A model generated the notes under the pieces. It saw only the letters and a list, made by a program, of their open reading frames with translations. It was not told where the DNA came from and made no database searches. Positions 1-64,000 of a stretch of 64,000 nucleotides of DNA are shown piece by piece. The DNA comes from Nanohaloarchaea archaeon SG9. GTDB taxonomy: Archaea; Nanohalarchaeota; Nanosalinia; Nanosalinales; Nanosalinaceae. Each line of letters begins with the position of its first letter. Position 1 is the first letter of the stretch. A program made the translations under genes and the position numbers. The stretch is from the NCBI GenBank assembly GCA_001761425.1, contig CP012986.1:575980-639979 (forward strand), given 5' to 3'.

Positions 1-621
1 GTGTGTCTTCCCTGTTCCCGGCTTTCCGATAAGCAGCATGCTTTTATCCATGTCCATCCCCCATTCCTCGATTTTCTTCTGCTTATCAGAATTTAGCTGC
101 GCTCCGACGTTCGAGGAAAGATTTGTGATGACATGATCGAGGCCTCCTACGTCCTGGAAAGTGACATCTGTCCGGATTGGTTCAAATTCTGCGTCACGAC
201 CTCTCTCTACAATATCTGTTACTTTGAAACTGTTTGGATCCAGAGCTACTTCTGTTCCTGGCTGAAACTCTTTTGCGTCATATCCGTTCGGTACCTCGAC
301 TCCATAGCGGCCTTTCATGTTTCCACTGGCTTCTACCCAGATACGGTCTCCGTCGAATTCGGATACAACTACTCCTCTCAGAACAGGTGTCTTCAGGTTT
401 GTTCCGTTAGGATTCTTATCCCCTCTGTTCTGCTGTTGCTGGAAGTACTGTGGGAACTGAACCTTCTGCTTTTTCTTGTCCTCTTTTCCTTCCTGTCGCT
501 GTTCCTCCTTCTCTTGATTTTCTTTCTCTTCTACCTGTTCGGAAGTATTGTCATCAGTCATAGATCTCACCAACTTTTTCGCACGCTGAACTAACTCTCT
601 CAGCCTGATCTCTAAACCCAT
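1..621 (-). CDS. AAA+ ATPase, proteasome-activating-nucleotidase (PAN)-like; only the N-terminal ~207 aa are in the window, the gene continues past the window start
   Basis: Absent from the ORF track because it runs off the window edge. Hand translation of the reverse strand from ATG (complement of 619-621) gives MGLEIRLRELVQRAKKLVRSMTDDNTSEQVEEKENQEK... It shows a K/E/Q-rich coiled-coil-like stretch and an OB-like segment (GNMKGRYGVEVPNGYDAKEFQPGTEVALDPNSFKVTDIV). It then shows DVTFQDVGGLD and the Walker A motif LLIGKPGTGKT at the window edge. The + strand ORF 133-594 (L/F-rich) is its antisense shadow. Confidence 0.6.
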   Translation of the reverse strand, partial: MGLEIRLRELVQRAKKLVRSMTDDNTSEQVEEKENQEKEEQRQEGKEDKKKQKVQFPQYFQQQQNRGDKNPNGTNLKTPVLRGVVVSEFDGDRIWVEASGNMKGRYGVEVPNGYDAKEFQPGTEVALDPNSFKVTDIVERGRDAEFEPIRTDVTFQDVGGLDHVITNLSSNVGAQLNSDKQKKIEEWGMDMDKSMLLIGKPGTGKTH

Positions 622-743
622 CTATACACCTTAAAATGCCGCTCTTATCTTTATAAATCGAACTTACTCACCGCCTCTAACCCGAAAAAACGTTTTCAGC
701 GGAATCAACTATCTTTTAAGAATTCACAGGAAACACCAAAGGC

Positions 744-2150
744 ATGAAAAACACAAAAATAGTCTCCACCATAGGACCCTCAACAGACACCAAAAAACAG
801 ATCGACAGATTAATCGACGCAGGAGTAGACGTAATCCGTCAAAACTTCTCCCATGTCAGCCACGAACAACACGAAAAAATATTTGACAGAATCAGGGAAA
901 CATCCGAAAAGACAGCAGTCATGGCAGATACCAAAGGCCCTGAAATCCGGCTCAGAAAGGTAAAAGAAGGAACAGTGCTGGAACAAGGCCACAAAGTGAA
1001 AATAACTGTGGAAGACGTCGAAGGAGACGAAAACAAACTATCCGTCAACTACAAGGCCTTCCTCGACCACATAGAGTCCGGAGATGAAATCAGGATGGAC
1101 GATGGTAAGATAGAGCTGGAGGTCGACAAAGTAGGCGAAACAGCGGAATGTACGGTAGTTTTCGGCGGAGAAGTAACAGACAAAAAAGCAGTTAACGTAC
1201 CTGGAAAAGACATAGGCCTTTCGGCGCCGACAGAAAAAGATAGAGAAGATATAAAGTTCGCAGCGGACAAAGGATACGATTTTATCTCTCTAAGTTTCGT
1301 GAAAGAGGCCTCTGACGTCGAAGAAGTAAGAAAGATACTGGAGGAAAATAGTTCCAGCGCCCATATTATCTCAAAGATTGAACACCGGGAAGCTGTGGAA
1401 AACTTCGATGAGATACTTAAGGCCTCAGATGCTTTGATGGTCGCAAGAGGAGATCTCGGGGTAGAGTTGCCTGCTGCCAGGCTCCCCATGATGCAGAAAG
1501 AAATGATTGAGAAATGTAACAGAGCTGGCAAACCGGTAATCACTGCTACCCAGATGCTGGAGTCGATGACAGAAAATCCTACAGCGACGAGAGCCGAGAT
1601 CTCTGACGTAGCGAACGCTGTTCTTGACGGATCGGATGCAGTGATGCTTTCAGGTGAGACAGCGATCGGAGACTACCCGGTCAAGACTGTAGAGTTCATG
1701 TCAGAGGTTATAGAGGAAACAGAGCAAACTCTGAAAGGTCATACCCACCATACTGTCAAGGAAAGGCCTGAATCCACACGTGATATCATCTGCAAAAACG
1801 TCTGGCAGGCAGCGAGAGACAATGAGGCCGGATACATCGTCGCCCATACATCTTCAGGTTCTACAGCCAGAAATATCTCAAAGTACAGGCCTGAAAAACC
1901 TGTCATCGCCTTTGCAGACAGTGAACGTGTCGAGCGACAGCTCAAACTTGCCTGGGGCGTAAGGCCTTACTACGAGGAGTTCCCTGAGGATGTAGAAGGA
2001 ATGCTTGAGGCCTCAGCTAGAAGGATGAAGTCTCTGAACCTGGCTGAGGATGATACAGAGCTTGTGATGTCTGCTGGAGTGCCGACCAGGGTTACAGGTA
2101 CGACCAATATGCTTCAGATCAGGACGGTCAGCAGTATCCTGAATAACTAG
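744..2150 (+). CDS. pyk: pyruvate kinase
   Basis: 468 aa. N-terminal KIVSTIGPST...DVIRQNFSH and MADTKGPEIR are pyruvate-kinase barrel motifs. MVARGDLGVE and the C-terminal allosteric domain are present. A TATA-like tttataaa lies about 95 nt upstream of the ATG. Confidence 0.9.
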   Translation: MKNTKIVSTIGPSTDTKKQIDRLIDAGVDVIRQNFSHVSHEQHEKIFDRIRETSEKTAVMADTKGPEIRLRKVKEGTVLEQGHKVKITVEDVEGDENKLSVNYKAFLDHIESGDEIRMDDGKIELEVDKVGETAECTVVFGGEVTDKKAVNVPGKDIGLSAPTEKDREDIKFAADKGYDFISLSFVKEASDVEEVRKILEENSSSAHIISKIEHREAVENFDEILKASDALMVARGDLGVELPAARLPMMQKEMIEKCNRAGKPVITATQMLESMTENPTATRAEISDVANAVLDGSDAVMLSGETAIGDYPVKTVEFMSEVIEETEQTLKGHTHHTVKERPESTRDIICKNVWQAARDNEAGYIVAHTSSGSTARNISKYRPEKPVIAFADSERVERQLKLAWGVRPYYEEFPEDVEGMLEASARRMKSLNLAEDDTELVMSAGVPTRVTGTTNMLQIRTVSSILNN

Positions 2151-2196
2151 GCTTTAACAGTAGAAATACGCTGTTAGATCCTCTAAACTTTTGGGA

Positions 2197-2271
2197 CGAA
2201 CCCGCAGGGATTTGAACCCTGGGCCTAGCGGTCCGAAGCCGCTCGCTCTGTCCAGGCTGAGCTACGGGTCC
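2197..2271 (-). tRNA. tRNA-Arg (anticodon TCG), no intron
   Basis: Reverse complement is GGACCCGTAGCTCAGCCTGGACAGAGCGAGCGGCTTCGGACCGCTAGGCCCAGGGTTCAAATCCCTGCGGGTTCG. It folds as a cloverleaf with acceptor GGACCCG/CGGGTTC, D-stem GCTC/GAGC, anticodon stem AGCGG/CCGCT with loop CTTCGGA, and T-arm CAGGG-TTCAAAT-CCCTG. Confidence 0.85.
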
Positions 2272-2337: not shown

Positions 2338-3084
2338 TTAGCCCAGGTGCATATCCCCGAGCTTGTCCCTTCGGTAAAGGTCGATCTCCGCAGCGTTGTT
2401 CCTGTCCTCCTGTCTCGCTGCATAGACTACTGATTCTGCGATATCCTCTGGTTCTGTTACTTCTCCTTTCTCGAATGCTTGCCTGAAGGCCTCGCCTTCT
2501 TCCGAGTTGAACTCTGTTCTGACCTCTGACGGATTGATCACGGTCACGCCGACGTCGTCGTCTCCTATCTGGCTGGAGAGGCTGAGGGCGAATCCGCGTG
2601 TCCACCATTTTGTCGCTGCGTACAGCGGATTTCCTCCACGAGGATACTTCCCTGCTATACTACCTGTAAAGATCAGATTTCCGTCTGTTTCTTTCAGATG
2701 CGGTATAGCTGCTCTTGCTGTGAAAAACATGCCGTCGACGTTGACATCCATGGTTTTCCGGTAGTGTTCTGTAGGCATGTCTTCTATCTCGCCGGTCATG
2801 GCAAGGCCTGCGTTGTCGAACACTATGTCAAGCTGTCCGAACTCTTCGACAGTCTCTTCTACCATTTCCTCGACCTGTAGTTCATCTGTCACGTCTGTAG
2901 GCCTTACAAACGTATCTACTCCGTGTTTGTCTTCGAGGTTTTTTGCTATCTGTTCCAGTTCTTCTCCTGTCCTTGATGCAAGTGCGATGTCAACTCCTTT
3001 TTCCGCCAGTTTATGTGCTGAGGCTTTTCCGATTCCAGAGGATGCTCCCGTGATCAAGGCCTTTTTTCCGCTGAGTTCTTTCAT
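2338..3084 (-). CDS. short-chain dehydrogenase/reductase (SDR family oxidoreductase)
   Basis: 248 aa. It has the Rossmann TGASSGIGKA motif, an NAG segment, and a catalytic YxxxK (YAATKWW) typical of classical SDRs. Confidence 0.85.
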   Translation of the reverse strand: MKELSGKKALITGASSGIGKASAHKLAEKGVDIALASRTGEELEQIAKNLEDKHGVDTFVRPTDVTDELQVEEMVEETVEEFGQLDIVFDNAGLAMTGEIEDMPTEHYRKTMDVNVDGMFFTARAAIPHLKETDGNLIFTGSIAGKYPRGGNPLYAATKWWTRGFALSLSSQIGDDDVGVTVINPSEVRTEFNSEEGEAFRQAFEKGEVTEPEDIAESVVYAARQEDRNNAAEIDLYRRDKLGDMHLG

Positions 3085-3140
3085 TGTATTTTTTCACCTG
3101 TAAACTGTTTTTGGAGGTTTGTCTGTTTTCAACATTGCTG

Positions 3141-3554
3141 TTAGAATCTGTGTTCCTTCCAGGTGTAGACTGTCTCGAAGCCGTAGTTAAAGGCGAAGCC
3201 TATGCATACTCCTATGATGTTTGCTAGAGGATACCAGATTCCCAGCCTGACACCGGCTTCAAGGGCCACGAGTGAGATAAGAATGCCTCCTGTACGGACA
3301 AGATTCGATTTCAGGAAACGAGTCATGATCTTTCCCGGTTCGCCGCTGTAAGTGTATCTGTTGTTCAATATGAACATCGCAGCGATCGAGGCCTCAGCAC
3401 CTACCAGCTTTGCGACCAGCAGAGGAGAATTCAGGATTTCAACCAGAAAGATCAGCACAACTGTCTCCAATCCAAGGCCTAATACACTGGTTGCACAGAA
3501 CTTGATAGTTCTTTTCACATCTGCGACCGTCTCCAGTAATTTCTTTACTTCCAC
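3141..3554 (-). CDS. GtrA-family small membrane protein (putative lipid-linked sugar flippase component)
   Basis: 137 aa with about 4 TM helices and an LNNRYTY motif matching the GtrA signature (LNR.WTF). It overlaps the upstream GT-C gene by 10 nt. Confidence 0.7.
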   Translation of the reverse strand: MEVKKLLETVADVKRTIKFCATSVLGLGLETVVLIFLVEILNSPLLVAKLVGAEASIAAMFILNNRYTYSGEPGKIMTRFLKSNLVRTGGILISLVALEAGVRLGIWYPLANIIGVCIGFAFNYGFETVYTWKEHRF

Positions 3555-4942
3555 TGTCCTAAGGCCTCCAGTTTCTCCTTGATAAACCTGTCGTAGATAT
3601 AGCCAAGGAATGTATAGTTGAGATTGTTTCTTTCGTTAAACCCTTCCAGGTAAGTTCTGTCGGCTTTACCAGGTTTTTTACACAGCTCGCTGTAGCCGTA
3701 AACTGTGAAACGCCCGTTATCCTCAAGAACTGGTGCGGAAACATTCCTGTAATCCGGGCCTTTGAAGCTTATCGATCTGTAACCGTCCTGAAGCCTCTCC
3801 ATAGTTATATTCTCGTTTGAGACAGGTCTTGTCGGTGCGCCTGCGTAGTTAGTCATCAACCAGTACTCGGACTCTGCCATACATCCGTTCACAGCATCAG
3901 CAGAATCAAGATACTTTCCAGGAGGTGTAAGACCACTTATACCGAGGCCTAGACCGCCCACCACCAGATTAACTGCTGCAAGCATATAAAAGATTTTTTC
4001 CCGATCTACAATGGTCCAGGTCTTTGATGCGTAGAATGCTGCCGGGACTGTTAACGGGTAAAGATATCTGAGCGATCTGTAGTCTGCTGTCAAGTATGAG
4101 AGCGTTACAAGGCCTGAGTAAGAGATTATCAAGACATCTTCTCTCGAGAAATTTATTTTTTCTCTGATTTCGGGTTTGAGATAGGCCAGGAGGATCGCTG
4201 CTGTCGGCAGAGTCATTATCAAAAGGTTATGAGGGTTCAAAGCTGTGCTTGTGTATCTCAGGAATACGTTAAGCATCAGGAAGTTTCCGAAGCTTGTTAG
4301 AGGGTTTCCTGTCTGGATATAGTTGTAGAGGAGCCATGGGACCAGTGTCAGGCCTGAAATTATCCCGGTCTTGACTATCTTTTTCAGGTCTCTCTGGAGC
4401 AGGATCAGCGGTATCAGGACGCCGAAGTTATACCTTGTCAGGAATGTAAGGCCGAGCCAGAGGCCTGACCGGGTTTTCTGGAAGTCGGCGAGGAAAAGTA
4501 ATGCAAAGGCTAGTGAAAGCATCTCGGTGCCGTTCATCGTCGAGAAAAATATCACGGCAGGAGTTAATGCGAAAATGTAGAACTTATCCGGTTCAAGGTC
4601 AAAGCTTTCCGAGAACTTTCTGGAACCGTAAAGGAAAAAAGCTGATGTCAGGCCTATAAAGACGTACTCGGAGATCTTTCTAGTGAAGATGTACTGAAGG
4701 AGGCCCATCGCTGTGGAGGCGAGTGGGGGCCTCAGCCATTCCATGTAGAAACCGCTGTGGAAGATATACTCCCCGATCATCGAGTAAGTGTTGAAATCCC
4801 AGGACCATCCTGTGCTGTGCTGGTAAAGCATCAGACCTGTAGCAAGGAGGAAAAAGACCAGAGTCAGATCTGTATACCTTTCTCTGATCCCTCCAGAATA
4901 TTCTTTGACTCTTTCCTCTATTTTCTCCGTCTCTATCTCCAT
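3545..4942 (-). CDS. GT-C fold membrane glycosyltransferase (ArnT/PMT/GtrC-like), polytopic with a C-terminal soluble domain
   Basis: 465 aa with at least 10 predicted TM helices and a first-loop WSWDF.Y segment. A roughly 130-aa hydrophilic C-terminal domain follows. It overlaps the GT2 gene (4933-5634) and the GtrA gene in an operon-like arrangement. Confidence 0.55.
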   Translation of the reverse strand: MEIETEKIEERVKEYSGGIRERYTDLTLVFFLLATGLMLYQHSTGWSWDFNTYSMIGEYIFHSGFYMEWLRPPLASTAMGLLQYIFTRKISEYVFIGLTSAFFLYGSRKFSESFDLEPDKFYIFALTPAVIFFSTMNGTEMLSLAFALLFLADFQKTRSGLWLGLTFLTRYNFGVLIPLILLQRDLKKIVKTGIISGLTLVPWLLYNYIQTGNPLTSFGNFLMLNVFLRYTSTALNPHNLLIMTLPTAAILLAYLKPEIREKINFSREDVLIISYSGLVTLSYLTADYRSLRYLYPLTVPAAFYASKTWTIVDREKIFYMLAAVNLVVGGLGLGISGLTPPGKYLDSADAVNGCMAESEYWLMTNYAGAPTRPVSNENITMERLQDGYRSISFKGPDYRNVSAPVLEDNGRFTVYGYSELCKKPGKADRTYLEGFNERNNLNYTFLGYIYDRFIKEKLEALGQWK

Positions 4943-8092: not shown

Positions 8093-8234
8093 CGGACCTG
8101 AAGGGATTTGAACCCTTGACTTCGAGGTATTTCCATTCGAAGACCAAGATCTTCTCTAACCCCCCAACTTTTGCGGAAGCTCAAGCAGGAGGTATTAGGA
8201 ACCTCGCGCTCTGTCCATGCTGAGCTACAGGCCC
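8093..8234 (-). tRNA. tRNA-Arg (anticodon CCT) with a 67-nt intron at the canonical 37/38 position
   Basis: Reverse complement is GGGCCTGTAGCTCAGCATGGACAGAGCGCGAGGTTCCTA|intron|ACCTCGAAGTCAAGGGTTCAAATCCCTTCAGGTCCG. The acceptor GGGCCTG/CAGGTCC, D-arm, anticodon stem CGAGG/CCTCG and T-arm AAGGG-TTCAAAT-CCCTT only pair if about 67 nt (approx. 8129-8195) are removed. Exons are approx. 8196-8234 and 8093-8128. Confidence 0.8.
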
Positions 8235-9241: not shown

Positions 9242-9313
9242 CTAAGGAACTTCTACAGTTAAAAACCAAAACAAACCCGGTTAAAAATTTGTCATCAAAC
9301 AGTAGAAAACACG

Positions 9314-11257: not shown

Positions 11258-11329
11258 GCGGCGTTGGTCCAGTGGCTAAGACTCCGGCCTTCCAAGCCGG
11301 CGACCCGGGTTCAAATCCCGGACGCCGCA
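11258..11329 (+). tRNA. tRNA-Gly (anticodon TCC)
   Basis: GCGGCGTTGGTCCAGTGGCTAAGACTCCGGCCTTCCAAGCCGGCGACCCGGGTTCAAATCCCGGACGCCGCA. The acceptor is GCGGCGT/ACGCCGC. The anticodon stem is CCGGC/GCCGG with loop CTTCCAA. The T-arm is CCGGG-TTCAAAT-CCCGG. Confidence 0.85.
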
Positions 11330-11450
11330 AATACATCGTATTTGCTCGAAGAAGCATTGAAAATTCGAATCCTTCGCCCCTCATCACTTTGTGCTCTTAA
11401 TTCCGGGATTTCTGAGAAAACTTGTTTTCGCCAATCCCGGACGCCGCAAA
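11314..11450 (+). repeat. 18-bp perfect direct repeat of the tRNA-Gly 3' end (AATCCCGGACGCCGCAAA) at 11314-11331 and 11433-11450
   Basis: Read directly from the sequence. The second copy lies about 100 bp downstream of the tRNA in non-coding DNA. This is an att-site-like scar. Confidence 0.7.
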
Positions 11451-11755
11451 CTGGTTACGCTCGTTTTCCCGAAAGCTCTCAGAGCTTTCTGAAACAAGAA
11501 GGCCTGTTAAAGGCCTTCGAGACACGCAATAAACCATGCTTTGCACGGCTTTCAGTATTTCAAGAAAATCTCCGATTTGCGGATCAAGTACCTTTCAACA
11601 GTAGCTTTTCCAATACCTGAAGAACCAATCATCATGATAGCAACTTTACCTTCCAGATCTGTAACAGGAACTAGATCGAAATTCCGAAGTAAGCTTCTGG
11701 CGAAAGATTTTAACAGGCCTGTCCTCTCAAAAAGAAAGCCGACGCATTACTTTCT

Positions 11756-12553: not shown

Positions 12554-12563
12554 TTTTATTTTT
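12554..12563 (+). promoter_or_regulatory. TATA-like box (ttttattttt) about 28 nt upstream of the giant-gene ATG (12586), implying a leaderless or near-leaderless transcript
   Basis: Position and composition match an archaeal TATA box. There is no SD-like sequence before the ATG at 12586. Confidence 0.3.
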
Positions 12564-12585
12564 GGACGGCTCTCTTATTGTATAC

Positions 12586-15500
12586 ATGGATTCAGGTAAA
12601 ATCTCGAAGCTCCTCCTGATTTTCCTCATCTTAGGCCTCATCCCTCTCTCAGCTTCTATATCAGAGGTTGACGTTCTCGTAGTTAACGATGGACACACCC
12701 TGGATCCATCGGCATCGGTAGATTATAGCCAGGAGGTCGATGAGAATTTTGAGGATATCTACAACGAGTCTCTTAAATCTATACAAGGGGTGGATGTAGA
12801 TTATAGTAAGACTTCGGACGATGAAAAGGAATCCGGACCTTCTCTGGAGACTATGAACCAGTATGACATGGTTGTCTGGTACACTTTAGCAGATAGTGCT
12901 AGTTCTCCGGGCGGTTTCAAAACTCTAACCAGTACTGATGAAGAAAATGTTCGCGAGTATCTGGATCAGGGGGGGACTTTCTATCTGACGGGCCATACCC
13001 TAGATGATGAGGAATCTCTTTACGGTGAAGGAGATTTTTTCAGGGAGGTCATGAATGCCAGATACAAGGATAATGATGGAAGTCCAAATTACTGGAGGTT
13101 TACTGATAGAGGCTCAAATGATGGAGAGGATTGGGAGTATGTACAGGTAACTGACGGGGCACTTTCAGATACGGATAGAATGCTGTTCGATCAGGACGGG
13201 AAAATTGTCCTGACAGGAGAAGACTCTCATGCTATAACTGAGGATATGTCCTTTGAACTCAATACATCCACTAACCCCCCAAGCTCTCTGGGAGTCCTGA
13301 CCGATAACTGTTACCATGAACAAGACAATGAGACCGAACTCGATCAGTGTGATCCTAATCCTTGGCAAAACGCAGATGATGGTCTCAGACTAGTCAATAA
13401 CAAACCTGTAGCTGATAGTAAGGGTGATACTGTAGATAAGGAAAATGTCAACATAAACGGAGCGGGTGATTCCAGCAGGATCACAGTAGACTACAGCGAG
13501 AGCCCTGACATGAAAACCGTAGCTGGAGTTGCTGTAAAAGATTCTAAAGACGTTGAAATGGAGCATTTTGACATCAGTAACGATGAAGGAAGTATTAAGA
13601 AGCTGAAGTCTATAGAAACCGAAGCCTTTGACGTCTACACGTTTCTTATAGACGATCAGTCCGACGGAAATGCAGAGTTCCTATTTAACGATACTGCAAG
13701 GCTAGCAGCTATTACTGTAACTGTGAAAAACGCTGTAGGAGCCTATCCTGCGACTGATGTAACTACCAAAAGTGCTCCGGAGGATATCAGTACTTCCGTA
13801 GAAAGCCAGGATGGGGACAGGGTTATAGACTTCCTGGCAGCCTCGGATAGTCCTAGCACAACAAATGACGAAATGAACGATATGGCCACTACCAATCTAG
13901 GAGGTAGCTCTACTTTCTTAACCAAAAGATTGGAAGGTTCCGACCCAGAGAGAACTATGGGATACAGCGGGCCGGAAAACATGGCCCACATAGTAATCAA
14001 CCTCAGAAAGGATAGGGCTGACGCTGAATACTATGTAGAGACTGATGGCTATGAAGACAACGGAGAGCCGGCAAGCAATCCAGGAAACAGCAATAATCAG
14101 GCAGATTACCCTGATGAGTACGCTCACACACTTGTGAACTCTAGAGAAGATAAGTACAGGACTTTGGTCAGTTCTATTGGCTTCGAATCTATCAAGGGAG
14201 AACAAAGCAGGAAGCAACTAATGGATAACACTCTAAGATTTCTTACAGGTCCGGTCGCCAATAATACAAGAGTTTACTCAGGAGAAAATATACCGGATAG
14301 CGGTGCAGACGAGTCAAGATACACTAACAGCACGCTAAATATTGAAGCTGAGGGAGAAAACCTTCAGCAAAATCCTTCAGGCCTCAGACGTGCACGCTTC
14401 CTGCATGAAGGAACTCCTCAGGAATTTAAGCCTACCTTTGAATCAGGATTTGATAACTTCACGGAAGCTAATCAGACATGGGAAGGCGATTCTGAAGATG
14501 GAGGTTATGCAACTGTAACTAGATCATGCGGGGTAAAGAAAGGAGATCAGGTCTTAACACTCTATGCAAGAGACGACGAAACTTTGTTAGATTCTCGCGA
14601 TGATGTAGCTGCTGTGAGGATGTCAGAACCTGTGGACGTATCAAATCACCAGAATCTTGTGCTTGAATTTTATGTCTCGGACGATGGAGTTGATTGCGAT
14701 GAGCCTGAATACGATTATGGCGAGCATCTCGATGTTATGTACAAAAATAATAATGGCTCCTATAGTAGGGCCAGAACAATCTATGCTGAATCTGACAACG
14801 TTAACTGGAGGAAGGTTCAGGTAGAGATTCCCGTGGATCGCAATGATCAGTTCAAGGTAAAGTTTAAGACTAGGGAAATGGATGTTGGTGATGCCTGGCT
14901 TGTAGATGAGGTTGAGATCAATCAAGGCCTTAGTTTAACCGATGGAAGATGGGGAGACCAGAAAGAAAGTGTGGAAGGCTTTATCAACGCTACTAAAGCT
15001 GTTGATAACCTTGATTCCAATCCTCGAGGAGTGAATCTCACCTATGGCGTCCAGTTTAAGGATGATTCCAACCAGGGTTACTGGGGTGTTCCGGAGAAAA
15101 GATGGGTCAAAATTGATACGGTCCCTCCTAATTCTCTGACAGATGTGAGTTTCGAAGATGACTATACCTCAGATGAAACTGTTAATATTTCGGTTACAAA
15201 TGACTTCATACTTGAAAAAAGGGCGAACCTGACCAGGTTCAGCTGTGATCCTGAAAATGGAGAGTGGTCGGAGTGGAGAACGAGAGATAGTCAACAGGTG
15301 AGTCAGAAGTTTGAAATAGATATCACTGATCAGGCCTTGGGGTGCAGTGATTCTCAGGGTAACAGGACGATAAGTGTTCAGACAAGGGATTATGCAGGGA
15401 ACCGTGCTCCGGAGATCAAGAAGGACTGGATAATCTATGATGCTGAAAGACCTGATTTCCTGGGTGCAAGGCCTGGGAACAGGTCTGCCGTTCAGTCGGA

Positions 15501-18500
15501 TGTCACTGTGAATATCACAGCTTCCGATAACTTCGGGATTTCTGACAGGTTTACGGAGTATAATGCTGGACAGGAGGACAGTATCTCTTTCACTCCGAAC
15601 GAGACTGTAGGGCTTGATTTCACTGGTGAAGGCTGGAGGACCCTTGAGGCCTGGATCTATGACAGGGCGTCGAATCTCAGGGAGGTGAGCCTTGACTACG
15701 ATATCGATGATACTGCTCCCTGGGTCAACGTTACTCCTGAAAGTAATAACGAGCCTAAAAACGATACTGCTGTGAAGCCGGATGAAACGTTCAGGATTGA
15801 GGCCTTTGACAGGAATTTTGAGTCTCTGACCGTGAATTCTGTAGGTAACAGTACTTTTTCGAATAATGTCAGTGACTTTGATCCTGAGTGGTCTGGTGGA
15901 AAGGTCAGGGATCTTGAGGTCTGGTTGAATGATTCTGCCGGTAACCAGCGTTTCAGGAATTACAGCTATACTGTTGATGGTCAGGCTCCTGTCTCTGAAG
16001 CGGTTGATACGGCTAATGAGAGTTATGTGAAGAGTGATGATGTTTTGAAGTTCAACTTTTCGGACTCCACTTCCGGAGTTGAAGGTGTCTCCACTTCCAA
16101 GGACAGGGAGAGAGGGGTTGACTGGGATCTTGGTGTAGGCTTTGGCTCGGATGCCAGTGGGGAGACCGATCTATCTGTATCTGCGACTGACCGTGCTGGA
16201 AACACTTTGACGGAGAATTATACCTATACTCTGGACGATGAGCCTCCGGTCGCCGAAACCAATTACAGCCGGGAGGCAGATTCCACGGATGGATGGTTCA
16301 ACAGAGACGTGGAGGTCGAGGTAAACGCCACGGATAACCAGGAGCTAGATACGATTATCTACGGTTCCAGCAGGGATGGAAGTGTATCAGCACCTGAACT
16401 TACAAGTAACACGAACACCAGTATCAAGGTCACCTGTCCGAATTCAAACATCTGTGAAAAAGTTGTAACTTACAACGCCAATGATTCGGCGGGCAACTAC
16501 TTCCGGGATTCCTACAGAGAATCCGAGACAGTTTCAATCGATAAGAAAGCACCTCTGATCGAAATAGGATCTCTCACACAGTCAGGCCTCATCGAGATAG
16601 AATCAGAAATCAGAGATCCTGGTATCGGAGTCCAGGACGCAAGCTTCAGAGTCCTCAACAGGAGCGATACATCACAGGTTCTCGAGTCAGGAGACCTGAA
16701 CGAATCGAATAACTGGTCCTACATCTGGGACTCGGAACAGGATATAGACAGCACACAGGAAGTCACTCTCAAGATAGAGGCCGAGGACAGGTTCCAGCAA
16801 AACAGCACAGAACAGACCGAGTTCAAAGTTGAGAACGAGAAAACAACAGCAACCATAACAAATCCGGAAGACGAGATAGTATCCGACAACTTCGACCTCT
16901 CAATAGAGGCTAACAGGCCTGGAAACTCCGAAGGGCTTAAATGGCATAACTTCACGGTGGATAGGAACGGAGAAGAGGTCTACAGCGAATCAAAGAGCCT
17001 TGAAGGAGCCGATACCCATCTTTTCGACAGGCAGTTCGATACTACAGAGCTGGATGGCGACGGTAATTACAGTTTGAATACTACTGCACTGAGCAATGGG
17101 ACATCAGAGTACGCAACGGCTGAAAAATGGTTCTACCTTGATACCAGGCCTCCAGAGGCCTTGATCGAGACGGATATCAACGATTCATGGGTCACAGGAA
17201 GGATAGAGATAGATTTCGCCGCCTCGGACAGTGTGGGCAACGGAACCCTAGAATCTTACTACATGAATGACTCTGACTGGCAGAGAATGAACAAGAACCT
17301 GAACTACTCGGATAAGGCCTTCAACTTCAGTACCTCCGACAGATGTCAGGACTCTGCCTCGAATACCTGTGGAGTCAAGATCGTCGCTGAGGATAAGGCA
17401 GGTAACCTTAACAGCTCAATGGTGGAGTTCAAAGTCGATAACAGTCCTCCGGAAGTTGATCTGACCGCACCGGATGCTGAGTGGCAGAACTCGAACTTTA
17501 ACGTAGCCAGAAACATCAGTGACAATGTAGTTGACTCGAGAGATCTCTACTGTGAGGTGAAAGTTAACTCTACAGGATGGCGGGAGACACAGCTCTGTAA
17601 CACCAACTACACTGTAGATATCTCGGAAAGCTGCGACAGGGAAGGAGGAATATGTCAGGTCGAGATAAATGCCTCCCATCCAGAACTTCCGCTATACCAG
17701 ACAGATCAGAAGTTCTACTCCATAGACACAGAGCAACCAGAAATATACACAGGACCGGAGCCAGCACCAGAAACAGTAATCAACGGCAGCGAAGATATAA
17801 GCCTAGGATTCCAGGAACCGACCTCAGACATGAACTACTCGAAATGGGACGAAGGAAAAGGCCTGAAAGACCTGGAAACCGACCAACCTTTCAAGCCAGG
17901 ATGGACCGAAAACGGAAACCGGACTTTGGAAATACTGCTGAACGACACGGCAGGAAACCTCAGAACAGAGCAGTACATATACACCTTCGACAACAAAGCC
18001 CCAGAACTCCAGAACTCAGGCCTCTCCGTATCAGAAGACGGATTCTTCGACGAAACCAGGGTGTACAGGGGAGAAGAGATCAAGCTGGAGCTGAACGTAT
18101 CCGAGAACATAGAGATGGAAAAAGTTACTGCCGAGATAAGCAGCGATGGGGAAAACTGGAACAAATCACTTCAACTCGAGGAAGGAAACCTGACCGAAGG
18201 CCTCTGGACCAAAAACCTGGCCAATACGACAACAGGCCTCTACACCGTCCAGAAAGTGTACCTGGAAGATAGAGCAGGGAACAGAACCAGGGTCTCCTCA
18301 AGCCTTCCGGAGTTCAGGATCATGAACTACTCCGAAAACGTTGAGATAGGTGGAATGAAAGAAGTAGATGCAGGGAACAGCACGGATTTCAACTACACAG
18401 TAGATTTCAACAGGACTCAAGGAGAGAGGCAGCTCAAAGTCTACGTTCCGCCCTCCGGTCCGGGAGAAACCTTTGACCCATACTTCCAGCTGGAAAACGT

Positions 18501-44068: not shown

Positions 44069-44099
44069 CTCAAAAAACTTTCATCCAACAACACCTTTC

Positions 44100-51401: not shown

Positions 51402-51725
51402 ATGATTGAGTTACAGGTGCTAATTGAACTGAGCACAGCTTTAATCGCTGCATTGATCAGTATGGCTGCAGGTAAACTTTACTGGAACATCAAAGAGGAT
51501 TCTGAAACTGTACTTACATCTTTCAAGCTGAGAGCGGATCTTACCCGATACGATTTCCTCGCATACCTGGTAGGGGAGCTTTTTCTCGTAATAACTTTTC
51601 TTATATATGTCGCAGGAGGCCTAATGGAAAACAAAGCCCTGGTACTGTTCTCAAGAGTACAGATCGTGGGCTTTCTCGGCGTGATAACCTACGGAGTGCT
51701 TAGAATGTGGTGGAGATCAAGATGA
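51402..51725 (+). CDS. hypothetical small membrane protein
   Basis: 107 aa with 3 predicted TM helices. It overlaps the next gene by 19 nt. Confidence 0.5.
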   Translation: MIELQVLIELSTALIAALISMAAGKLYWNIKEDSETVLTSFKLRADLTRYDFLAYLVGELFLVITFLIYVAGGLMENKALVLFSRVQIVGFLGVITYGVLRMWWRSR

Positions 51726-52177
51726 ACCTTATAATAACTCTATTCGCAGCACTTTCGGCATTGATTACCACGCTCATATTCTATTACAACCTGAAGATCG
51801 TCAATAAATTCAGAGAGGACGAAGAACTCACAGCAACAAAACTCGTGATCAAGGAAAGAGTACCAGACGCGTTCATGGCACTGTCAATATCATCACTGTT
51901 CTTCTCACTGGGAGCCTTCATAGGAGCAACACTCATACTGTTCAGACTCCAGATATTCCAGTACTTCACAGAAATAGGGATCATCACCATGCTCGTAGGC
52001 CTGCTGACATTCATGAAAAGAATAAGCGATGCAGTAACCGAAGGAAAGAAAGACGAAGTAGAAAACGAACAGAGAAAAGAAGAAAAATCAGAGCCTCAGG
52101 AAGACGAGAAAGAAAACATGGAAACCGAAAACGAGAAAGCCTCGAAAAAAGACTCTGAAGAAGAAAAAGAAGAATAA
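51707..52177 (+). CDS. hypothetical membrane protein with an acidic K/E-rich C-terminal tail
   Basis: 156 aa. Its architecture resembles the preceding gene (a possible tandem paralog) plus a low-complexity tail. Confidence 0.5.
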   Translation: MVEIKMNLIITLFAALSALITTLIFYYNLKIVNKFREDEELTATKLVIKERVPDAFMALSISSLFFSLGAFIGATLILFRLQIFQYFTEIGIITMLVGLLTFMKRISDAVTEGKKDEVENEQRKEEKSEPQEDEKENMETENEKASKKDSEEEKEE

Positions 52178-52183
52178 AGGCCT

Positions 52184-52978
52184 TTACCAGGGAGCGAACT
52201 CTGGATCTACCCTTCTATCTCTTCTCTCAAGGCCGTCGATCTTCTCGATGTCTTCCTCATCAAGTTCAAGGTCCAAGGCCCTGTAATTGTCCTCTATATG
52301 TTCTTCAGAAGTTGCCTTGGGAATCACAACAACATTGTCTTTCTGCATCAGCCAGGCAAGTGAAACCTGTGCAGGAGAAACACCGTGTTTCTCTGCGATA
52401 TCTCTAAGCTCCGGGATCTCGAAGACCTTACCTCTCGCAAGAGGAGAGTAAGCCACCAGATAGATATCATGTTCTCTGCATTTCTCCAGGATCTCTTCCT
52501 GCTGGAGCAGAGGATGCATCTCAACCTGGTTCGCAACAATATGCTCGCCAGCAATCTCCATAGCCTCATCCACCTGCTCCGGTTCAAAGTTACTGATACC
52601 GATGTTATCGATTCTTCCCTCCTCTACAAGCTCCCTGAACGCACCCAGAGTCTCCTCAGGCCTGTAATCACCGGAAGGCCAGTGAACATACATCAAGTCA
52701 ACGGAATCAACGCCAAGCTTATCCAGACTCTCCTCTGTCGAGGCCTTAACCTTCTCAGCCGAGAGCTTATTGATCCAGACCTTTGAAGCAAGGAAAAAAT
52801 CCTCTCTGTCTACATCCGCTGCTGAAAGGCCTTCGCCGACATCTTCCTCGTTGCTGTAGGCCTGGGCGGTATCGATATGCCTGTATCCCATGTCCAGCGC
52901 GGTTTTAACTGATTCACTGCATTCTTTTGGGTTTGAGTTCTGCCAGGTGCCGAGACCAAGCTCAGGTATCTCTTTCAT
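52184..52978 (-). CDS. aldo/keto reductase
   Basis: Start chosen at the internal Met (MKEIPELGLGTWQ...), which matches the canonical AKR N-terminus (LGLGTW). Catalytic HID...AQAY and the C-terminal IPKS-like VIPKATS are present. The 61-codon upstream extension of the track ORF (to 53161) is Cys/Ser-rich and non-genic in character. Confidence 0.8.
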   Translation of the reverse strand: MKEIPELGLGTWQNSNPKECSESVKTALDMGYRHIDTAQAYSNEEDVGEGLSAADVDREDFFLASKVWINKLSAEKVKASTEESLDKLGVDSVDLMYVHWPSGDYRPEETLGAFRELVEEGRIDNIGISNFEPEQVDEAMEIAGEHIVANQVEMHPLLQQEEILEKCREHDIYLVAYSPLARGKVFEIPELRDIAEKHGVSPAQVSLAWLMQKDNVVVIPKATSEEHIEDNYRALDLELDEEDIEKIDGLERRDRRVDPEFAPW

Positions 52979-53331
52979 AACACCAAGAAGAGGCCTCAGT
53001 GCTTTTACCTCTTGCTTTATTCTACCGGAACTGCCGGAAAGCTGTCTCTTTTCGTTTTTAATAGGGGGTTCGAATAATGAGGTGAGGGGAGAACAAATGA
53101 AACACATTGAGAAGGGGGAACTTGACTTTCCAACACAGAAAACGCCGTTCGAGGCCTTCAACTCCAGGATAGAGGAGGGAACTATATGAGAGCCGAGGAG
53201 TTCCGGAGCCTTGAGGCCTTGCCAGGTGATCCTGATGAGGATCTGTCCGGATTAAGAAGGAGGTTTGCCATAAAGCTGAGGAGGTCTTTCGCCCGGGTAT
53301 CTGGGTAGAGTCCTTCCCAAAGCTTTCTTTT

Positions 53332-53383: not shown

Positions 53384-54391
53384 ATGATTGTCCAGGATGC
53401 ACGTGTTCTGCGCGATGACTTTATCCCGAAAGAGGTTGTCCACAGAGATTCCGAGGTACAGGAGCTTTCAAGAGCTCTGGAACCGCTGGTGGAAAATGAA
53501 CAGGCGCGCAACATACTTCTGTACGGGCCTCCAGGAACAGGGAAAACCTGTCTTTCACAGTACGTCATGGAAAAACTGGAGGAGGAACTCCTTGACTTTA
53601 ACTACATGTATATCAACTGCTGGGAAAACTACAACAGGTTCAAAGTCCTTTATAAAGCGTTAGAAGGAGTCGGGAAGACTTTACACGTCCACAGACAGTC
53701 AACACCTACAGATGAACTTTATTCAAAGCTGAAAGATTACGACAGGGCACCTTATGTACTGATACTTGATGAGGTCGACCAGTTAGAGGATGAAAAAGTC
53801 CTTTACGATCTTCAAGGCCTTAACAACGTACATATCGTGATGATAGCGAACACCCAGGAATCTGTTTTCTACAACATGGATGACAGAGTCAGAAGCAGAC
53901 TGATCGACTCGAAGAGAATCCAGTTCAAGGCTTACACCTCTGATCAGTTACAGGATATACTCATGGACCGTGCGGAGTGGGGTCTAGATTCTTCTGCTGT
54001 CGATTCTTCTCTTATCAAAAAGATCGCTCTCTCCTCGGAAGGTGATGCACGCATAGCGATTGGAGTTCTACGTGCAGCGGCCAGGATGGCTGAGGAAAGA
54101 GATAAGAAAGAGATTACCCGGGATATGATACAGGAAGCAGTTCCAGAAGCGAAGGACAACAACAAGAAGAAAAACGAAGAGAAACTGAACAACCACCAGG
54201 AGAAACTGTACGAAATAGTAAACGAGGAAGAAGAGATCCAGCCCGGCGATCTCTACGAAAAATACAGAGAAGCCATGGATGAACCGAAAAGCGACAGGAT
54301 GCTCAGAAAATACCTTCAGAAAATGGATCACTACAACCTGATAGAAGCCGAAGGAGAAGGTCGCTGGCGAAAATATCGGTCAGTGGAATGA
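53384..54391 (+). CDS. orc1: Orc1/Cdc6 replication initiator (AAA+ with C-terminal winged helix)
   Basis: 335 aa. LLYGPPGTGKT is Walker A and VLILDEVD is Walker B. The HRDSEVQELSRALEPL N-terminal pattern is Orc1-like. The C-terminus has the winged-helix-like LYEKYREAM...RKYLQKM... Confidence 0.8.
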   Translation: MIVQDARVLRDDFIPKEVVHRDSEVQELSRALEPLVENEQARNILLYGPPGTGKTCLSQYVMEKLEEELLDFNYMYINCWENYNRFKVLYKALEGVGKTLHVHRQSTPTDELYSKLKDYDRAPYVLILDEVDQLEDEKVLYDLQGLNNVHIVMIANTQESVFYNMDDRVRSRLIDSKRIQFKAYTSDQLQDILMDRAEWGLDSSAVDSSLIKKIALSSEGDARIAIGVLRAAARMAEERDKKEITRDMIQEAVPEAKDNNKKKNEEKLNNHQEKLYEIVNEEEEIQPGDLYEKYREAMDEPKSDRMLRKYLQKMDHYNLIEAEGEGRWRKYRSVE

Positions 54392-54798
54392 AAAAAGGAA
54401 GCTACATACTCCTCATAGAACTGGAGGAAAAAGAAACAGTAAAAATAGGTCCTGGAAACCGGGAACTAGAGAAAGGATTCTACACCTACTTCGGCACTGC
54501 ATTCGGACCCGGAGGCCTCAAAAGAGTAGAAAGACACAGCAAACAGGCCTCAGGAGAAAAAAATGTAAAACACTGGCATATCGACTACCTGACAACCCTG
54601 GAAAAATCAAGGATGATCAAGGCCGTGAAATTCCCGGAGAAAGACCTTGAATGCGAACTCGCATCTCAGGCACAAAACATGATAGAGGCCTTCGGATCCA
54701 CAGACTGTAAATGCGGTTCACACCTCGCATACTTCCATGAAAGAGAGGAAGGAGAGGCCCTTCTGGAGAAGATGAAAGCGAAATACCTTAATTCTTAA
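54388..54798 (+). CDS. conserved archaeal DUF123-like (GIY-YIG-related) protein
   Basis: 136 aa. GSYILLIEL...GFYTYFGTAFG...HWHIDYL matches the conserved motifs of the DUF123 family. The start overlaps the orc1 stop (ATGA). Confidence 0.55.
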   Translation: MKKGSYILLIELEEKETVKIGPGNRELEKGFYTYFGTAFGPGGLKRVERHSKQASGEKNVKHWHIDYLTTLEKSRMIKAVKFPEKDLECELASQAQNMIEAFGSTDCKCGSHLAYFHEREEGEALLEKMKAKYLNS

Positions 54799-54823
54799 AT
54801 CCTGAGACCTTTCCCTCTGTTAA

Positions 54824-54964
54824 GGGCTCTTAGTTCAGTCTGGCAGAACGCCTGCTTCGCAACACCACTTGCTTGAATCTAGGTGAAAGCTGGAGGTTAG
54901 AGAAGAACAAAGATCTTCAAAGCGGAATAGCAGGAGGCCTCGGGTTCAAATCCCGAAGGGTCCA
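54824..54964 (+). tRNA. tRNA-Ala (anticodon CGC) with a 67-nt intron at 37/38
   Basis: GGGCTCTTAGTTCAGTCTGGCAGAACGCCTGCTTCGCA|intron 54862-54928|AGCAGGAGGCCTCGGGTTCAAATCCCGAAGGGTCCA. The G3:U70 alanine identity pair is present. The anticodon stem CCTGC/GCAGG and T-arm TCGGG-TTCAAAT-CCCGA only pair after intron removal. Confidence 0.8.
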
Positions 54965-55076
54965 AATTTATTTCGTCCAGGATTTGATATCCTCCGAGAA
55001 GATTCTCTGATCTTCGGACGGGTTCAAATCATCGAAAATTTCCCTGAGAAATTTTCTGGAGATGCAGAAACTCTGC

Positions 55077-55115
55077 GAGTTTCGAATCCCGAAGAGTCCA
55101 AGTTTATTCCGTCCA
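55077..55115 (+). repeat. degenerate (32/38) duplicate of the tRNA-Ala 3' end plus its first 19 nt of downstream flank; original at 54942-54979
   Basis: Original GGGTTCAAATCCCGAAGGGTCCAAATTTATTTCGTCCA versus copy AGTTTCGAATCCCGAAGAGTCCAAGTTTATTCCGTCCA. A third partial copy (GGGTTCAAATC) lies at 55021-55031. Confidence 0.6.
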
Positions 55116-55130
55116 TGACTTTTCCTGGTT

Positions 55131-55490
55131 CTATGCAAGGTTTTCAGGCAATCTGTAGAACAGGTTTTTCCGCGGGTATGATTCGTTCGGCAGGTCCACA
55201 TGTTTGACCTCTCTTTCAAGGAGTCCCTGTTCCACTGCTCCGTTCAACAGGTTTTCAAGCCGGTTCCAGTCACTTTCTCCAGCGATCTGTGCCGGTACCC
55301 CGCTGTATTCCCCGGTTTCTGCGTATTTTTCTCTAAGCTTTTTCATCGCGTCCAGAGTGTTGAACTCGTTTTCCTGTATATGACTGGAGTAAAGCCTGTC
55401 TCCTGAGTTGTAAAGGCCTCCAAGATCTTCTACCAGGTTATGTGCTGTATACTGTCCTGTATCTGCGTCCTGAGTTTCTGTGCCTGACAT
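55131..55490 (-). CDS. hypothetical acidic protein
   Basis: 119-aa ORF with no motif recognised. Confidence 0.5.
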   Translation of the reverse strand: MSGTETQDADTGQYTAHNLVEDLGGLYNSGDRLYSSHIQENEFNTLDAMKKLREKYAETGEYSGVPAQIAGESDWNRLENLLNGAVEQGLLEREVKHVDLPNESYPRKNLFYRLPENLA

Positions 55491-62037: not shown

Positions 62038-62042
62038 TGTAT

Positions 62043-63227
62043 CTATCTCTCCAGGTTTTCCTGTATTATTTTCAGTGCTTCTTCTCTGACATCATAGGCG
62101 ACGAAGACGATGACGCTAGAAGCCGATGTCACGATCTCGTGGATGTTTATATTTACGTCAGCGAGAGGGGTGACGATATCTTTTACCACGCCAGGCCTGT
62201 CTGGAAGTTTTCCTCCAGCCACCCGTACTACGCCGATCCCGTCGTCGACGGTTACAGAGGAAATCTTCTCCTTATCCAGGACCATGTTATGCAAGGCCTC
62301 GTTTGCCTTCTCAGCTCTTTCTTCTTCTATGAAAAGGCTTACACTGTCCATTCCTGTCGAAGCGGCCTCAATATTGATCTCTTCTTTATCCATTGCAGAA
62401 GTCATCTTCGCCAGGATACCTGGCTCAAGCCTTATCTCCCTGCCCGCTACAGTCAGACACGCGAACTCTTTCTCATCAGTATTGATTATACGCTCGAACT
62501 CGCCCTCGATACTCGTTCCCGAATCAAGTAAATCCGCGTTCTGGTAATGGACAACAGTAACATCCATAACGTCTTCTTTGTAAGGCAGGGCCTCGGGAGC
62601 CACAACTTCAGCACCTTTGAACGAAAGATCCCGCAGCTCATCGACGCTGATCTCGCCCACGTTGTGAGCAGACTCTACAATTTCAGGATTGCCTGTCAAA
62701 ACACCTTCAACATCCGTAACAATTACTGTCCTGTCCGCATCCATGTAGTTTCCAAGCATCACCGCAGTGATATCAGAGCCTCCACGACCAAGCGTGGTAA
62801 CTTTCTCTTCAGTACCTTCCGCCAGGAAACCTGTTATCACAGGAACCTCTTTTTCAAGTTTTTCAGCAAGCTCTCCAGATCTTTTTCGAGTTTTTTCTTT
62901 CTCTACAGATCCTGTTTCGTCAACCTTTACCGGCCACCCTTCCTTCCCTGGCTCATAGAACTCTGCGTCAAGGCCTCGAGCGTTCAAAGCTGCTTTAAGC
63001 ATCCTCACGCTTGTCCTTTCTCCCATCGAGACTATTTCATCCCGGTCATCTTCTTCTGCGCTGAAATTAATGTTGTCGAGCAGTTCATCTGTAGTGGAGC
63101 CCATGGCCGATGCGACGACAGCTATCTCATGGCCTTCCTCCACAGCTTTTTCGATAGAATCGGCGGCGTTCTCGATCCTGTCGCCGTCTTTCAAACTGGT
63201 GCCTCCAAATTTTGCGATTATCCTCAC
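62043..63227 (-). CDS. lysC: aspartate kinase with C-terminal ACT domains
   Basis: 394 aa. IAKFGGTSL is the kinase N-terminal motif, and VVVSAMGSTTDEL follows. Two ACT-like repeats lie at the C-terminus. Confidence 0.85.
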   Translation of the reverse strand: MRIIAKFGGTSLKDGDRIENAADSIEKAVEEGHEIAVVASAMGSTTDELLDNINFSAEEDDRDEIVSMGERTSVRMLKAALNARGLDAEFYEPGKEGWPVKVDETGSVEKEKTRKRSGELAEKLEKEVPVITGFLAEGTEEKVTTLGRGGSDITAVMLGNYMDADRTVIVTDVEGVLTGNPEIVESAHNVGEISVDELRDLSFKGAEVVAPEALPYKEDVMDVTVVHYQNADLLDSGTSIEGEFERIINTDEKEFACLTVAGREIRLEPGILAKMTSAMDKEEINIEAASTGMDSVSLFIEEERAEKANEALHNMVLDKEKISSVTVDDGIGVVRVAGGKLPDRPGVVKDIVTPLADVNINIHEIVTSASSVIVFVAYDVREEALKIIQENLER

Positions 63228-63976
63228 TCTTCAAGCACCTCTGAGAAGCTGTAAAACCCTGGCTTTTTGTCTTGAAGCCATTCAGCAGCTCTGAGTGCGC
63301 CGGAAGCGAAGACTTCTCGTGATTCGCTTCTGTGTCTGATCTTCAGGACTTCTTCATCTCCGGCCAGGAGAACTTCATGTGTTCCTTTTATGTCGCCTGC
63401 TCTCTTTGCGTGTACGCCGATTTCTCCTTTTTCTCTAGGCTGTTTTCCTTCACGGCCGTGAACTTCCTCGAAACCTCCTCTTGCTTCCTCAATTTCACTC
63501 AGGAAAGTTTTTGCGGTGCCTGACGGTGCATCTCTCTTCCTGTTGTGATGTGTCTCCGTGACTTCTATATCATACTTCTCAAGTTTTCCAGCAGCTTCTC
63601 TGACAAGTTCCCTCATCACGTTGATGCTCGGAGAAAAATTCGAGGCCTTCAGTACAGGGATTTCCTCGCCAGCTTCCTCAATTCTTTTTTCTTGATCTTC
63701 TGAGAATCCTGTGGTTCCGATGACGATAGCAGTTTCGGTTTTCCGTGCTGCCTCCAGGTATTTCATCGTTGCTTCCGGGACTGTGAAATCTACGATAACA
63801 TCGACTTTGTTTTCTCTGAGAAGCTGTTCAAGGTTTTCATCGCTTTCGACTTCGAGGCCTCTGTGTTCTGTTTTTTCCCTGTCTACCGCTATCGAGATGT
63901 TTTCTCCGCGGTCTCGTGTGACTTTCATGACGTTGGTTCCCATCTGGCCTGTGGCTCCGGTCGCCGCTATATCCAT
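63224..63976 (-). CDS. dapB: 4-hydroxy-tetrahydrodipicolinate reductase
   Basis: 250 aa. ETHHNRKRDAPSGTA matches the DapB signature (E.HH..K.DAPSGTA). The N-terminal Rossmann GATGQMG is present. It overlaps lysC by 4 nt, giving a dapB-lysC-asd operon. Confidence 0.85.
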   Translation of the reverse strand: MDIAATGATGQMGTNVMKVTRDRGENISIAVDREKTEHRGLEVESDENLEQLLRENKVDVIVDFTVPEATMKYLEAARKTETAIVIGTTGFSEDQEKRIEEAGEEIPVLKASNFSPSINVMRELVREAAGKLEKYDIEVTETHHNRKRDAPSGTAKTFLSEIEEARGGFEEVHGREGKQPREKGEIGVHAKRAGDIKGTHEVLLAGDEEVLKIRHRSESREVFASGALRAAEWLQDKKPGFYSFSEVLEE

Positions 63977-64000
63977 TGTATAACCTCTATATTAGGCCTT

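Follow-up and report, generated by a model that had tools for sequence, protein, structure and literature searches.

Exact counting found the palindromic hexamer AGGCCT 274 times in a 64,000-bp stretch of the genome of Ca. Nanopetramus SG9, a nanohaloarchaeon from Atacama halite with a genome of 1.1 Mb and 46.4% GC (bioRxiv 10.1101/029934). This whole stretch is hereafter called the window. At one copy per 234 bp (approximately 4.3 per kb), AGGCCT ranked first among all hexamers of the window. The force maintaining the hexamer dictates synonymous codon choice, drives amino-acid replacements, depends on the distance between sites, and has been switched on and off between sister lineages; sites within approximately 30 bp of one another are disfavored, and long gaps are filled. 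AGGCCT is tentatively regarded as a highly iterated palindrome (HIP) of a subset of the Nanohaloarchaeota and as the candidate target of a methyltransferase used in genome maintenance.

Abundance, placement and spacing of AGGCCT

The next non-overlapping hexamer, GAAAAA, was present in 158 copies. Each 4-kb bin contained 12–21 copies of AGGCCT, indicating an even distribution across the whole window. The number expected was 13.3 at order 0 and 15.8 at order 1, which corresponds to a 17–21-fold excess. Unmasked Markov models of orders 2, 3, and 4 predicted 49, 126, and 255 copies, respectively, but 68% of the GGCC tetramers of the window sit within AGGCCT, and the order-3 and order-4 expectations are therefore circular. 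When sub-word counts were taken outside AGGCCT sites, models of orders 0–4 predicted 12–20 copies (15–16 at orders 3–4), a 14–22-fold excess. AGGCCT was also an outlier among the 64 palindromic hexamers, at 17.3 times the order-1 expectation compared with 2.7 times for the next, GATATC. The flanking 9–10 kb on both sides of the window had the same density, and extrapolation gives approximately 4,800 copies in the 1.1-Mb genome. An earlier note on this DNA had reported about eight sites in 744–2150, about eight in 3000–4500, persistence of the motif into the last kilobases, and an excess of more than 20-fold. The exact positions bear out the local counts, with eight sites in the first interval, sites at 3057, 3389, 3475, 3562, 3945, 4110, 4350, and 4461 in the second interval and at 62294, 62971, and 63643 near the end, and the order-0, order-1, and masked models put the excess at approximately 20-fold.

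The GC content of the window was 46.6%, and its encoded proteins are very acidic. Many other palindromic hexamers were strongly depleted, including CAATTG (1 vs. 15.5 expected) and TGCGCA (0 vs. 5.5). TTGCAA, GAGCTC, and CTTAAG were also depleted, all CTAG-containing hexamers were at 0.13–0.29 times expectation, and the other NGGCCN palindromes were depleted too (GGGCCC, 0.26 times; TGGCCA, 0.54 times). This depletion suggests restriction avoidance beside the AGGCCT excess.

The earlier note had described a DNA-level signal rather than a codon or dipeptide effect, and the placement of the sites agrees with that description. Open reading frames (ORFs) contained 241 sites, with 33–45 outside them, and all three codon phases were used (AGG|CCT, 38; xAG|GCC|Txx, 87; xxA|GGC|CTx, 116). 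The motif was denser in non-coding DNA (5.2–5.7 per kb) than in coding DNA (4.1 per kb). A synonymous-codon shuffle that kept the proteins and codon usage yielded 32 ± 5 copies vs. the 241 observed (7.5-fold, 40 standard deviations), and a codon-order shuffle yielded 17. We give practically no credence to codon usage, one favored dipeptide, or a hidden dispersed repeat family as the source of the excess. The unmasked expectations of 126 and 255 do approach the observed count, but they collapse upon masking; the shuffles, the use of all phases and of non-coding DNA, the almost information-free flanks, the lack of any longer repeat, and a relative of similar GC content and proteins with only 0.07 AGGCCT per kb exclude artefacts of this kind. 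There are practical consequences for sequence analysis: approximately 30% of the GGC and 27% of the GCC codons of the window lie within AGGCCT sites, so the motif skews codon usage and amino-acid composition and distorts k-mer-based binning and Markov gene models.

The signal also extends to the proteins. A permissive context was defined as a place where the amino-acid sequence allows AGGCCT without a protein change; in the window, 241 of the 317 such contexts (76%) were filled. The contexts themselves were 1.6–2.3 times more frequent than in amino-acid shuffles: R-P was observed 55 times (shuffle mean, 34), [EKQ]-A-[CFLSWY] 124 times (55), and x-G-L 138 times (84). Five orthologous genes (gatA, gatB, a gatB-like gene, an AAA ATPase gene, and pyk; approximately 2,110 codons) were then compared among four genomes, the focal one being represented by locus L066, at base 9258 of which the window starts. 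L066 had 33 permissive contexts, 82% of them occupied; L007 had 28 (82%), L001 had 27 (44%), and the equally related, non-enriched L002 had 15 (7%). The number in L002 matches the shuffle expectation of 17–18. Since permissive contexts are twice as common in the focal genome as in L002, protein sequences have been altered. Site-creating replacements in the alignment included EGV>EGL, EVF>EAF, KP>RP, and LNL>LGL, and at shared amino acids L002 had GGA-CTx where the other three genomes had GGC-CTx. For pyruvate kinase, the nearest named genomes were Ca. Nanosalina sp. VS9-1 and nanohaloarchaeon M3_22 (79% amino-acid identity).

Gaps between sites in the window were more regular than random (coefficient of variation 0.835, P=0.0015). 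Only seven gaps were shorter than 25 bp (27.7 expected) and five longer than 700 bp (13.6 expected). The same held when the actual permissive contexts were taken as given: short gaps numbered 10 vs. 18.5 under random occupancy (P=0.0006), and long gaps 5 vs. 10.1 (P=0.01). Occupancy of permissive contexts was 47% at ≤30 bp from another site, compared with 74–88% farther away (P=2e-4). As short and long gaps are both rarer than under random occupancy, occupancy at one site depends on the others. Among 881 pooled sites from ten enriched loci, 28 pairs were found at 1–30 bp vs. approximately 102 expected, a 3.6-fold depletion; in the same pool no 10–11-bp helical phasing was detected, and only the period-3 coding signal appeared. 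The longest site-free gap lies in the 5′ part of a 3,224-codon gene, the whole of which has 3.1 sites per kb compared with the window mean of 4.3.

The flanks of the pooled half-sites showed weak preferences, namely A or G at −1 (T being rare) and T at −3/−4, which were alike in coding and non-coding DNA. In the window, flank information was ≤0.2 bit per position and near zero beyond ±4 bp. The earlier note had reported frequent palindromic 8–10-mers. Two of the extended forms, AAGGCCTT (59 copies) and GAGGCCTC (22 copies), are indeed common, but TGAGGCCTCA (four copies) and TAAGGCCTTA (two copies) are rare, and palindromic 8-mers numbered 93 vs. 87 expected from independent flanks. Palindromic coupling of the two flanks was accordingly rejected. 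The flank preference was also lineage-specific: the focal genome prefers A at −1, L007 and L090 share tAG-AGGCCT-CTa, and L070 prefers C at −1. In L090, G at −1 was found in 57% of sites and A at −2 in 59%, giving AGAGGCCTCT. Because the flanks are uncoupled and the preferred flank changes between lineages, the conserved unit is the hexamer with weak symmetric flank preferences, and the idea of a longer palindrome as the real unit is not supported. A repeat search for anything longer around AGGCCT yielded only chance families of approximately 70% identity about the hexamer; conservation did not extend beyond the core, and a dispersed repeat element resembling repetitive extragenic palindromic sequences or miniature inverted-repeat transposable elements was rejected. 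Variants one base away from the motif, summed by position as observed over expected, gave 1.44 for positions 1/6, 1.13 for 2/5, and 1.02 for 3/4, a weak trend in the same direction as in the cyanobacterial palindrome HIP1.

Conservation and turnover among related lineages

The focal locus and L068 align collinearly for 18.3 kb, with 79% DNA identity. In this comparison, 56 of 74 sites (76%) were retained, compared with 28% for other hexamers in the same codon phase and 33% for hexamers of the same composition. Where the amino-acid context was identical, the six bases were unchanged in 89% of sites vs. 39% of other hexamers. Active maintenance of the sites, for which the earlier note had invoked positive selection, is thus supported both by overall retention and by nucleotide identity at unchanged amino acids. 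Lineage-specific sites numbered 18 in L066 and 23 in L068, and their counterparts differ from the motif in many ways. A second assembly of the same organism (SRR2630167) was 100% identical and yielded no polymorphism.

A survey of 48 nanohaloarchaeal loci from one metagenome scan showed that the enrichment is patchy. It reached 13–21-fold in ten lineages, 8–10-fold in L001 (M3_22) and L101, and 2–5-fold in L074, L077, and L079, and was approximately 1-fold or less in about twenty lineages, including L002 and contig NAR1_12. Enrichment was 17-fold in the SG9 genome, 21-fold in Ca. Nanosalina VS9-1 (NZ_CP180230.1), and 8-fold in M3_22 (CP046106.1), whereas NAR1 and the metagenome-assembled genome JBEQAZ01 are non-enriched. 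The motif was approximately 12–20 times denser than in unrelated DNA. In a tree built from five proteins with 200 bootstraps, L079 (2.3-fold) was placed inside the clade of L007 (21-fold) and L090 (17-fold) with 100% support, L074 and L077 (3–5-fold) grouped with L070 and L084 (17–20-fold) with 98%, L001 and L101 grouped with the focal clade with 95%, and L002 (0.4-fold) was sister to the L007 clade with 84%. Three clades with 98–100% support each mix members at 13–21-fold with members at 0.4–5-fold. Since enriched and low lineages interleave in the tree, AGGCCT enrichment has been repeatedly gained or lost between sister lineages. In the low-density sister lineages, most sites common to two high relatives were absent, and the sequences replacing them were heterogeneous. 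Close lineages have, lack, or are losing the motif, and as some of these genomes are cultured or complete, the responsible gene could be findable by simple phyletic comparison.

Some non-enriched nanohaloarchaeal lineages showed a weaker excess of WCCGGW (4–5.5-fold). Among L091 with L097, L098, and L081 with L085 and L089, none of which is enriched in AGGCCT, TCCGGA and ACCGGT were at this level, and GCCGGC reached 7.9-fold, with only eight copies. Such moderate excesses may represent weaker "alternate" iterated palindromes.

Candidate explanations

Under the explanation that we tentatively prefer, and to which we would give slightly less than an even chance, AGGCCT would be recognized by a DNA enzyme specific both to the lineage and to the sequence, most likely a cytosine methyltransferase of StuI/HaeIII-like specificity that leaves G-meC at the center. 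The methyltransferase is proposed by analogy, because cyanobacterial HIPs co-occur with methyltransferases of matching specificity. Marked sites might be read by a genome-maintenance process needing one site every few hundred bp; an example is the part in strand discrimination or nicking that Elhai suggested HIPs play during post-replicative repair (PMC4390886). Selection or a repair-coupled ratchet would create sites where they are sparse and preserve existing ones, and gain or loss of the enzyme gene would account for the patchy phylogeny and the decaying lineages. In Ca. Nanohalococcus, two Dcm-like methyltransferases have been described, with a motif assigned to only one (PMC11001535).

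Several results weigh against this explanation. No DNA methyltransferase gene was found in the window, its ±10-kb flanks, or 50 related loci (615 kb). All ORFs of the window and the related loci were searched with motif regular expressions, and Pfam was run on a few candidates, on nearly all window ORFs, and on the ±10-kb flanks; the candidates from the regular expressions proved to be an HD-domain protein and proteins without a Pfam match. Furthermore, no one-off neighbor of AGGCCT was depleted, and the decaying lineages showed no single hot position such as one methylated cytosine, with C>T changes at both cytosines. The density of one site per 234 bp is four times above the approximately 1 per kb of Elhai's repair model. 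Sites conserved at orthologous positions would be left by selection and by a saturating drive alike, and the short-range exclusion could instead be avoidance of closely spaced inverted repeats. A more far-reaching reading is possible but doubtful: AGGCCT would be the first archaeal HIP with a genuine function as a signal, a genome-wide "self" mark with a dedicated enzyme reader, guiding repair or recombination or distinguishing symbiont from host DNA. When viral contigs were scanned for dense AGGCCT triplets, only chance or tandem-repeat hits (such as TTAGGG arrays) were found among the matches listed.

Four further mechanisms address the same observations; the earlier note had named a methyltransferase target, a nucleoid-associated or segregation protein, an uptake or recognition signal, and a repair-system bias without choosing among them. 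The symmetry of the flank preferences to approximately ±4 bp, their identity in coding and non-coding DNA, the resemblance of the exclusion zone of approximately 30 bp to a footprint, and the spacing, which is more even than chance, would all suit a motif that an abundant dimeric protein of the nucleoid-associated, segregation, or condensation type binds without any DNA modification and that is selected for chromosome organization at one site per few hundred bp; a role in nucleoid structure has been argued for HIP1 by Xu et al. (PMC5861425). This is nevertheless unlikely: the flank preference shifts between lineages while the core stays constant, helical phasing is absent, no candidate gene was identified, and sister lineages would have had to lose a core chromatin system repeatedly, which seems costly. 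To our knowledge, no archaeal chromatin protein has hexamer specificity. We regard as quite unlikely the view that AGGCCT is the functionless by-product of a neutral process, in which a mismatch-repair or gene-conversion bias turns near-cognates into AGGCCT by molecular drive. A site-autonomous bias does not predict that occupancy depends on the distance to a neighbor, and many different sequences have given rise to sites, some through transversions such as GGA>GGC. The one-off neighbors are equally unhelpful to it: none was depleted, with the deamination products AGGTCT/AGACCT at 1.4–2.5 times and AGGCTT/AAGCCT at 1.2–1.5 times expectation, and the repair-system bias suggested in the earlier note is disfavored in its simple, Vsr-type form. 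On the other hand, strong drive would be expected to nearly saturate permissive contexts and override amino-acid sequence, the on/off pattern between sisters and the apparent decay in L079, L074, L077, and L001 fit gain or loss of one repair gene, and thousands of sites, each of weak effect, are hard to keep by selection.

The motif might also act as a signal of self-recognition or uptake, with host-attached cells preferring or sparing conspecific DNA and uptake bias combined with recombination accumulating the sites, but this is improbable. Dispersal in all frames, the effect on peptides, and even spacing do resemble the uptake signal sequence (USS) of Haemophilus; known uptake sequences, however, are 9–12 nt long, non-palindromic, and often paired as terminators. 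Close pairs of AGGCCT are avoided (3.6-fold within 30 bp), a hexamer gives weak specificity, and Pfam recognized no competence or uptake genes in the window. The contrast in density with unrelated DNA could nonetheless discriminate self, and traffic of DNA and nucleotides with the host is part of the symbiotic way of life (PMC10266531). It is highly improbable that AGGCCT serves an AddAB-like helicase-nuclease as a Chi-like regulatory sequence. The idea is brought to mind by a nuclease gene followed by a helicase gene in the window, an unusual pair for an archaeon; the palindrome, with its symmetric flanks, has no orientation, which defines Chi, and the helicase falls far below every NCBIfam AddA/RecB/PcrA cut-off. 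The density and fold-excess of AGGCCT are also far above those of known Chi sites.

Other features of the window and comparison with known systems

The coordinates of the sites and genes are collected in Table 1.

Table 1. Positions of AGGCCT sites, genes, and tRNA-like sequences in the window.
Feature	Position	Strand	Remarks
AGGCCT, dispersed copies	1..64000	palindrome	n = 274; first 20 starts: 140, 1054, 1214, 1306, 1420, 1764, 1887, 1962, 2008, 2333, 2487, 2804, 2899, 3057, 3389, 3475, 3562, 3945, 4110, 4350
Pyruvate kinase gene (pyk)	744..2150	+	8 AGGCCT sites; one of the five compared orthologues
Intron-containing tRNA	8093-8234	-	142-nt match, Rfam only
Rare close pair, sites at 11500 and 11511	11500..11516		non-coding, downstream of tRNA-Gly
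Giant acidic surface-type protein gene	12562-22236	+	3,224 codons; C-terminal transmembrane segment
Longest AGGCCT-free stretch	12639..14378		1,746-bp gap between sites 12633 and 14379
VRR-NUC domain nuclease	30862-31431	-	
Mre11 and Rad50 homologues	33738-36747		
PIN_5 ribonuclease-domain protein	43977-44732	+	
PD-(D/E)XK nuclease-domain protein	45477-48047	+	856 aa
UvrD/AddA-like SF1 helicase	48044-50785	+	913 aa; start overlaps nuclease stop
ORF flanking the AGGCCT at 52178	51707-52177	+	
Intergenic AGGCCT between convergent genes (TAA-AGGCCT-TTA)	52178..52183		0 bp to both stop codons
ORF flanking the AGGCCT at 52178	52184-53161	-	
Orc1/Cdc6 gene region	53384-54798	+	followed by DUF123 protein and tRNA-like stretch
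tRNA-like pieces	54826-54966 and 55060-55100		D-arm-like ~54833-54851; T-arm GGGTTCAAATCCCG 54941-54955

The window is unusually nuclease-rich for a 1-Mb genome. With a single AGGCCT in 1 kb, the Orc1/Cdc6 gene is the poorest in sites of all sizeable genes, and its region could represent a replication origin or a recent acquisition. The sequence matched by Rfam and missed by ARAGORN is taken as an intron-containing archaeal tRNA on that ground. The tRNA-like pieces downstream of Orc1/Cdc6 were not called by ARAGORN, and an Rfam search of 54700–55200 gave no match; the T-arm resembles the tRNA-Arg at 2194–2272. In two places, here and behind tRNA-Gly (11306–11332 vs. 11425–11451), partial tRNA 3′-end duplicates occur approximately 120 bp farther downstream. 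Such pieces may represent scars of integration, or else tRNAs that are split or contain an intron.

In the full-text literature, no report was found that links AGGCCT to nanohaloarchaea or describes an archaeal HIP, and the motif goes unmentioned in the papers on SG9 and on cultured nanohaloarchaea. Until now, palindromes of such abundance had been recorded essentially from cyanobacteria alone. AGGCCT is an independent instance in another domain of life, in 1-Mb genomes with approximately 1,300 genes, and a functional archaeal HIP, if confirmed, would offer a mechanistic handle on the HIP problem, now 30 years old. The motif can also serve to mark nanohaloarchaeal DNA as to lineage and to reveal foreign pieces inside it.

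Among better-known repeated sequences, the uptake sequences of Neisseria (DNA uptake sequence, DUS) and Haemophilus (USS) are likewise over-represented genome-wide, fall in several coding frames, affect peptides, and are fairly evenly spaced, but they are longer, non-palindromic, present at approximately 1 per kb, and often arranged in inverted pairs, whereas close pairs of AGGCCT are avoided. In the Dcm/Vsr system of E. coli (CCWGG), a methyltransferase target is raised by repair bias; that effect is modest and depletes the T-containing neighbor CTWGG, in contrast to the approximately 20-fold excess of AGGCCT with neighbors that are not depleted. The six bases are identical to the restriction-modification target of StuI/Eco147I. 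Active restriction targets are normally avoided, but this one is the commonest hexamer in the window.

The comparison with HIP1 (GCGATCGC) of cyanobacteria (Xu, Lawrence & Durand 2018, PMC5861425; Elhai 2015, PMC4390886) reveals more in common. Both are short, GC-rich palindromes (HIP1 is 15–300-fold over-represented), dispersed in all gene frames and between genes, conserved between related genomes beyond background, and lineage-restricted with losses. AGGCCT differs in being a hexamer rather than an octamer, in lacking a GATC/CGATCG core, in being about four times denser (4.3 vs. approximately 1 per kb), in showing a short-range exclusion zone, and in occurring in Archaea, namely in DPANN symbionts with 1-Mb genomes. 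A periodicity of 10–90 kb has been reported for HIP1 motif density (PMC5861425); the structure of AGGCCT was examined here at short range within the 64-kb window. The alternate HIPs GGCGCC (Calothrix PCC 7103), rCCGGy (Oscillatoria PCC 10802), and GCsGC (Cyanothece PCC 7822) each co-occur with a methyltransferase of the same specificity in cyanobacteria (PMC4390886), whereas for AGGCCT a matching methyltransferase is a prediction only. Like AGGCCT, these alternates are palindromes of five to six bases with an observed/expected ratio of approximately 15, confined to single lineages and gained and lost over short evolutionary scales, and the WCCGGW excess in other nanohaloarchaeal lineages recalls the replacement of one HIP by another.

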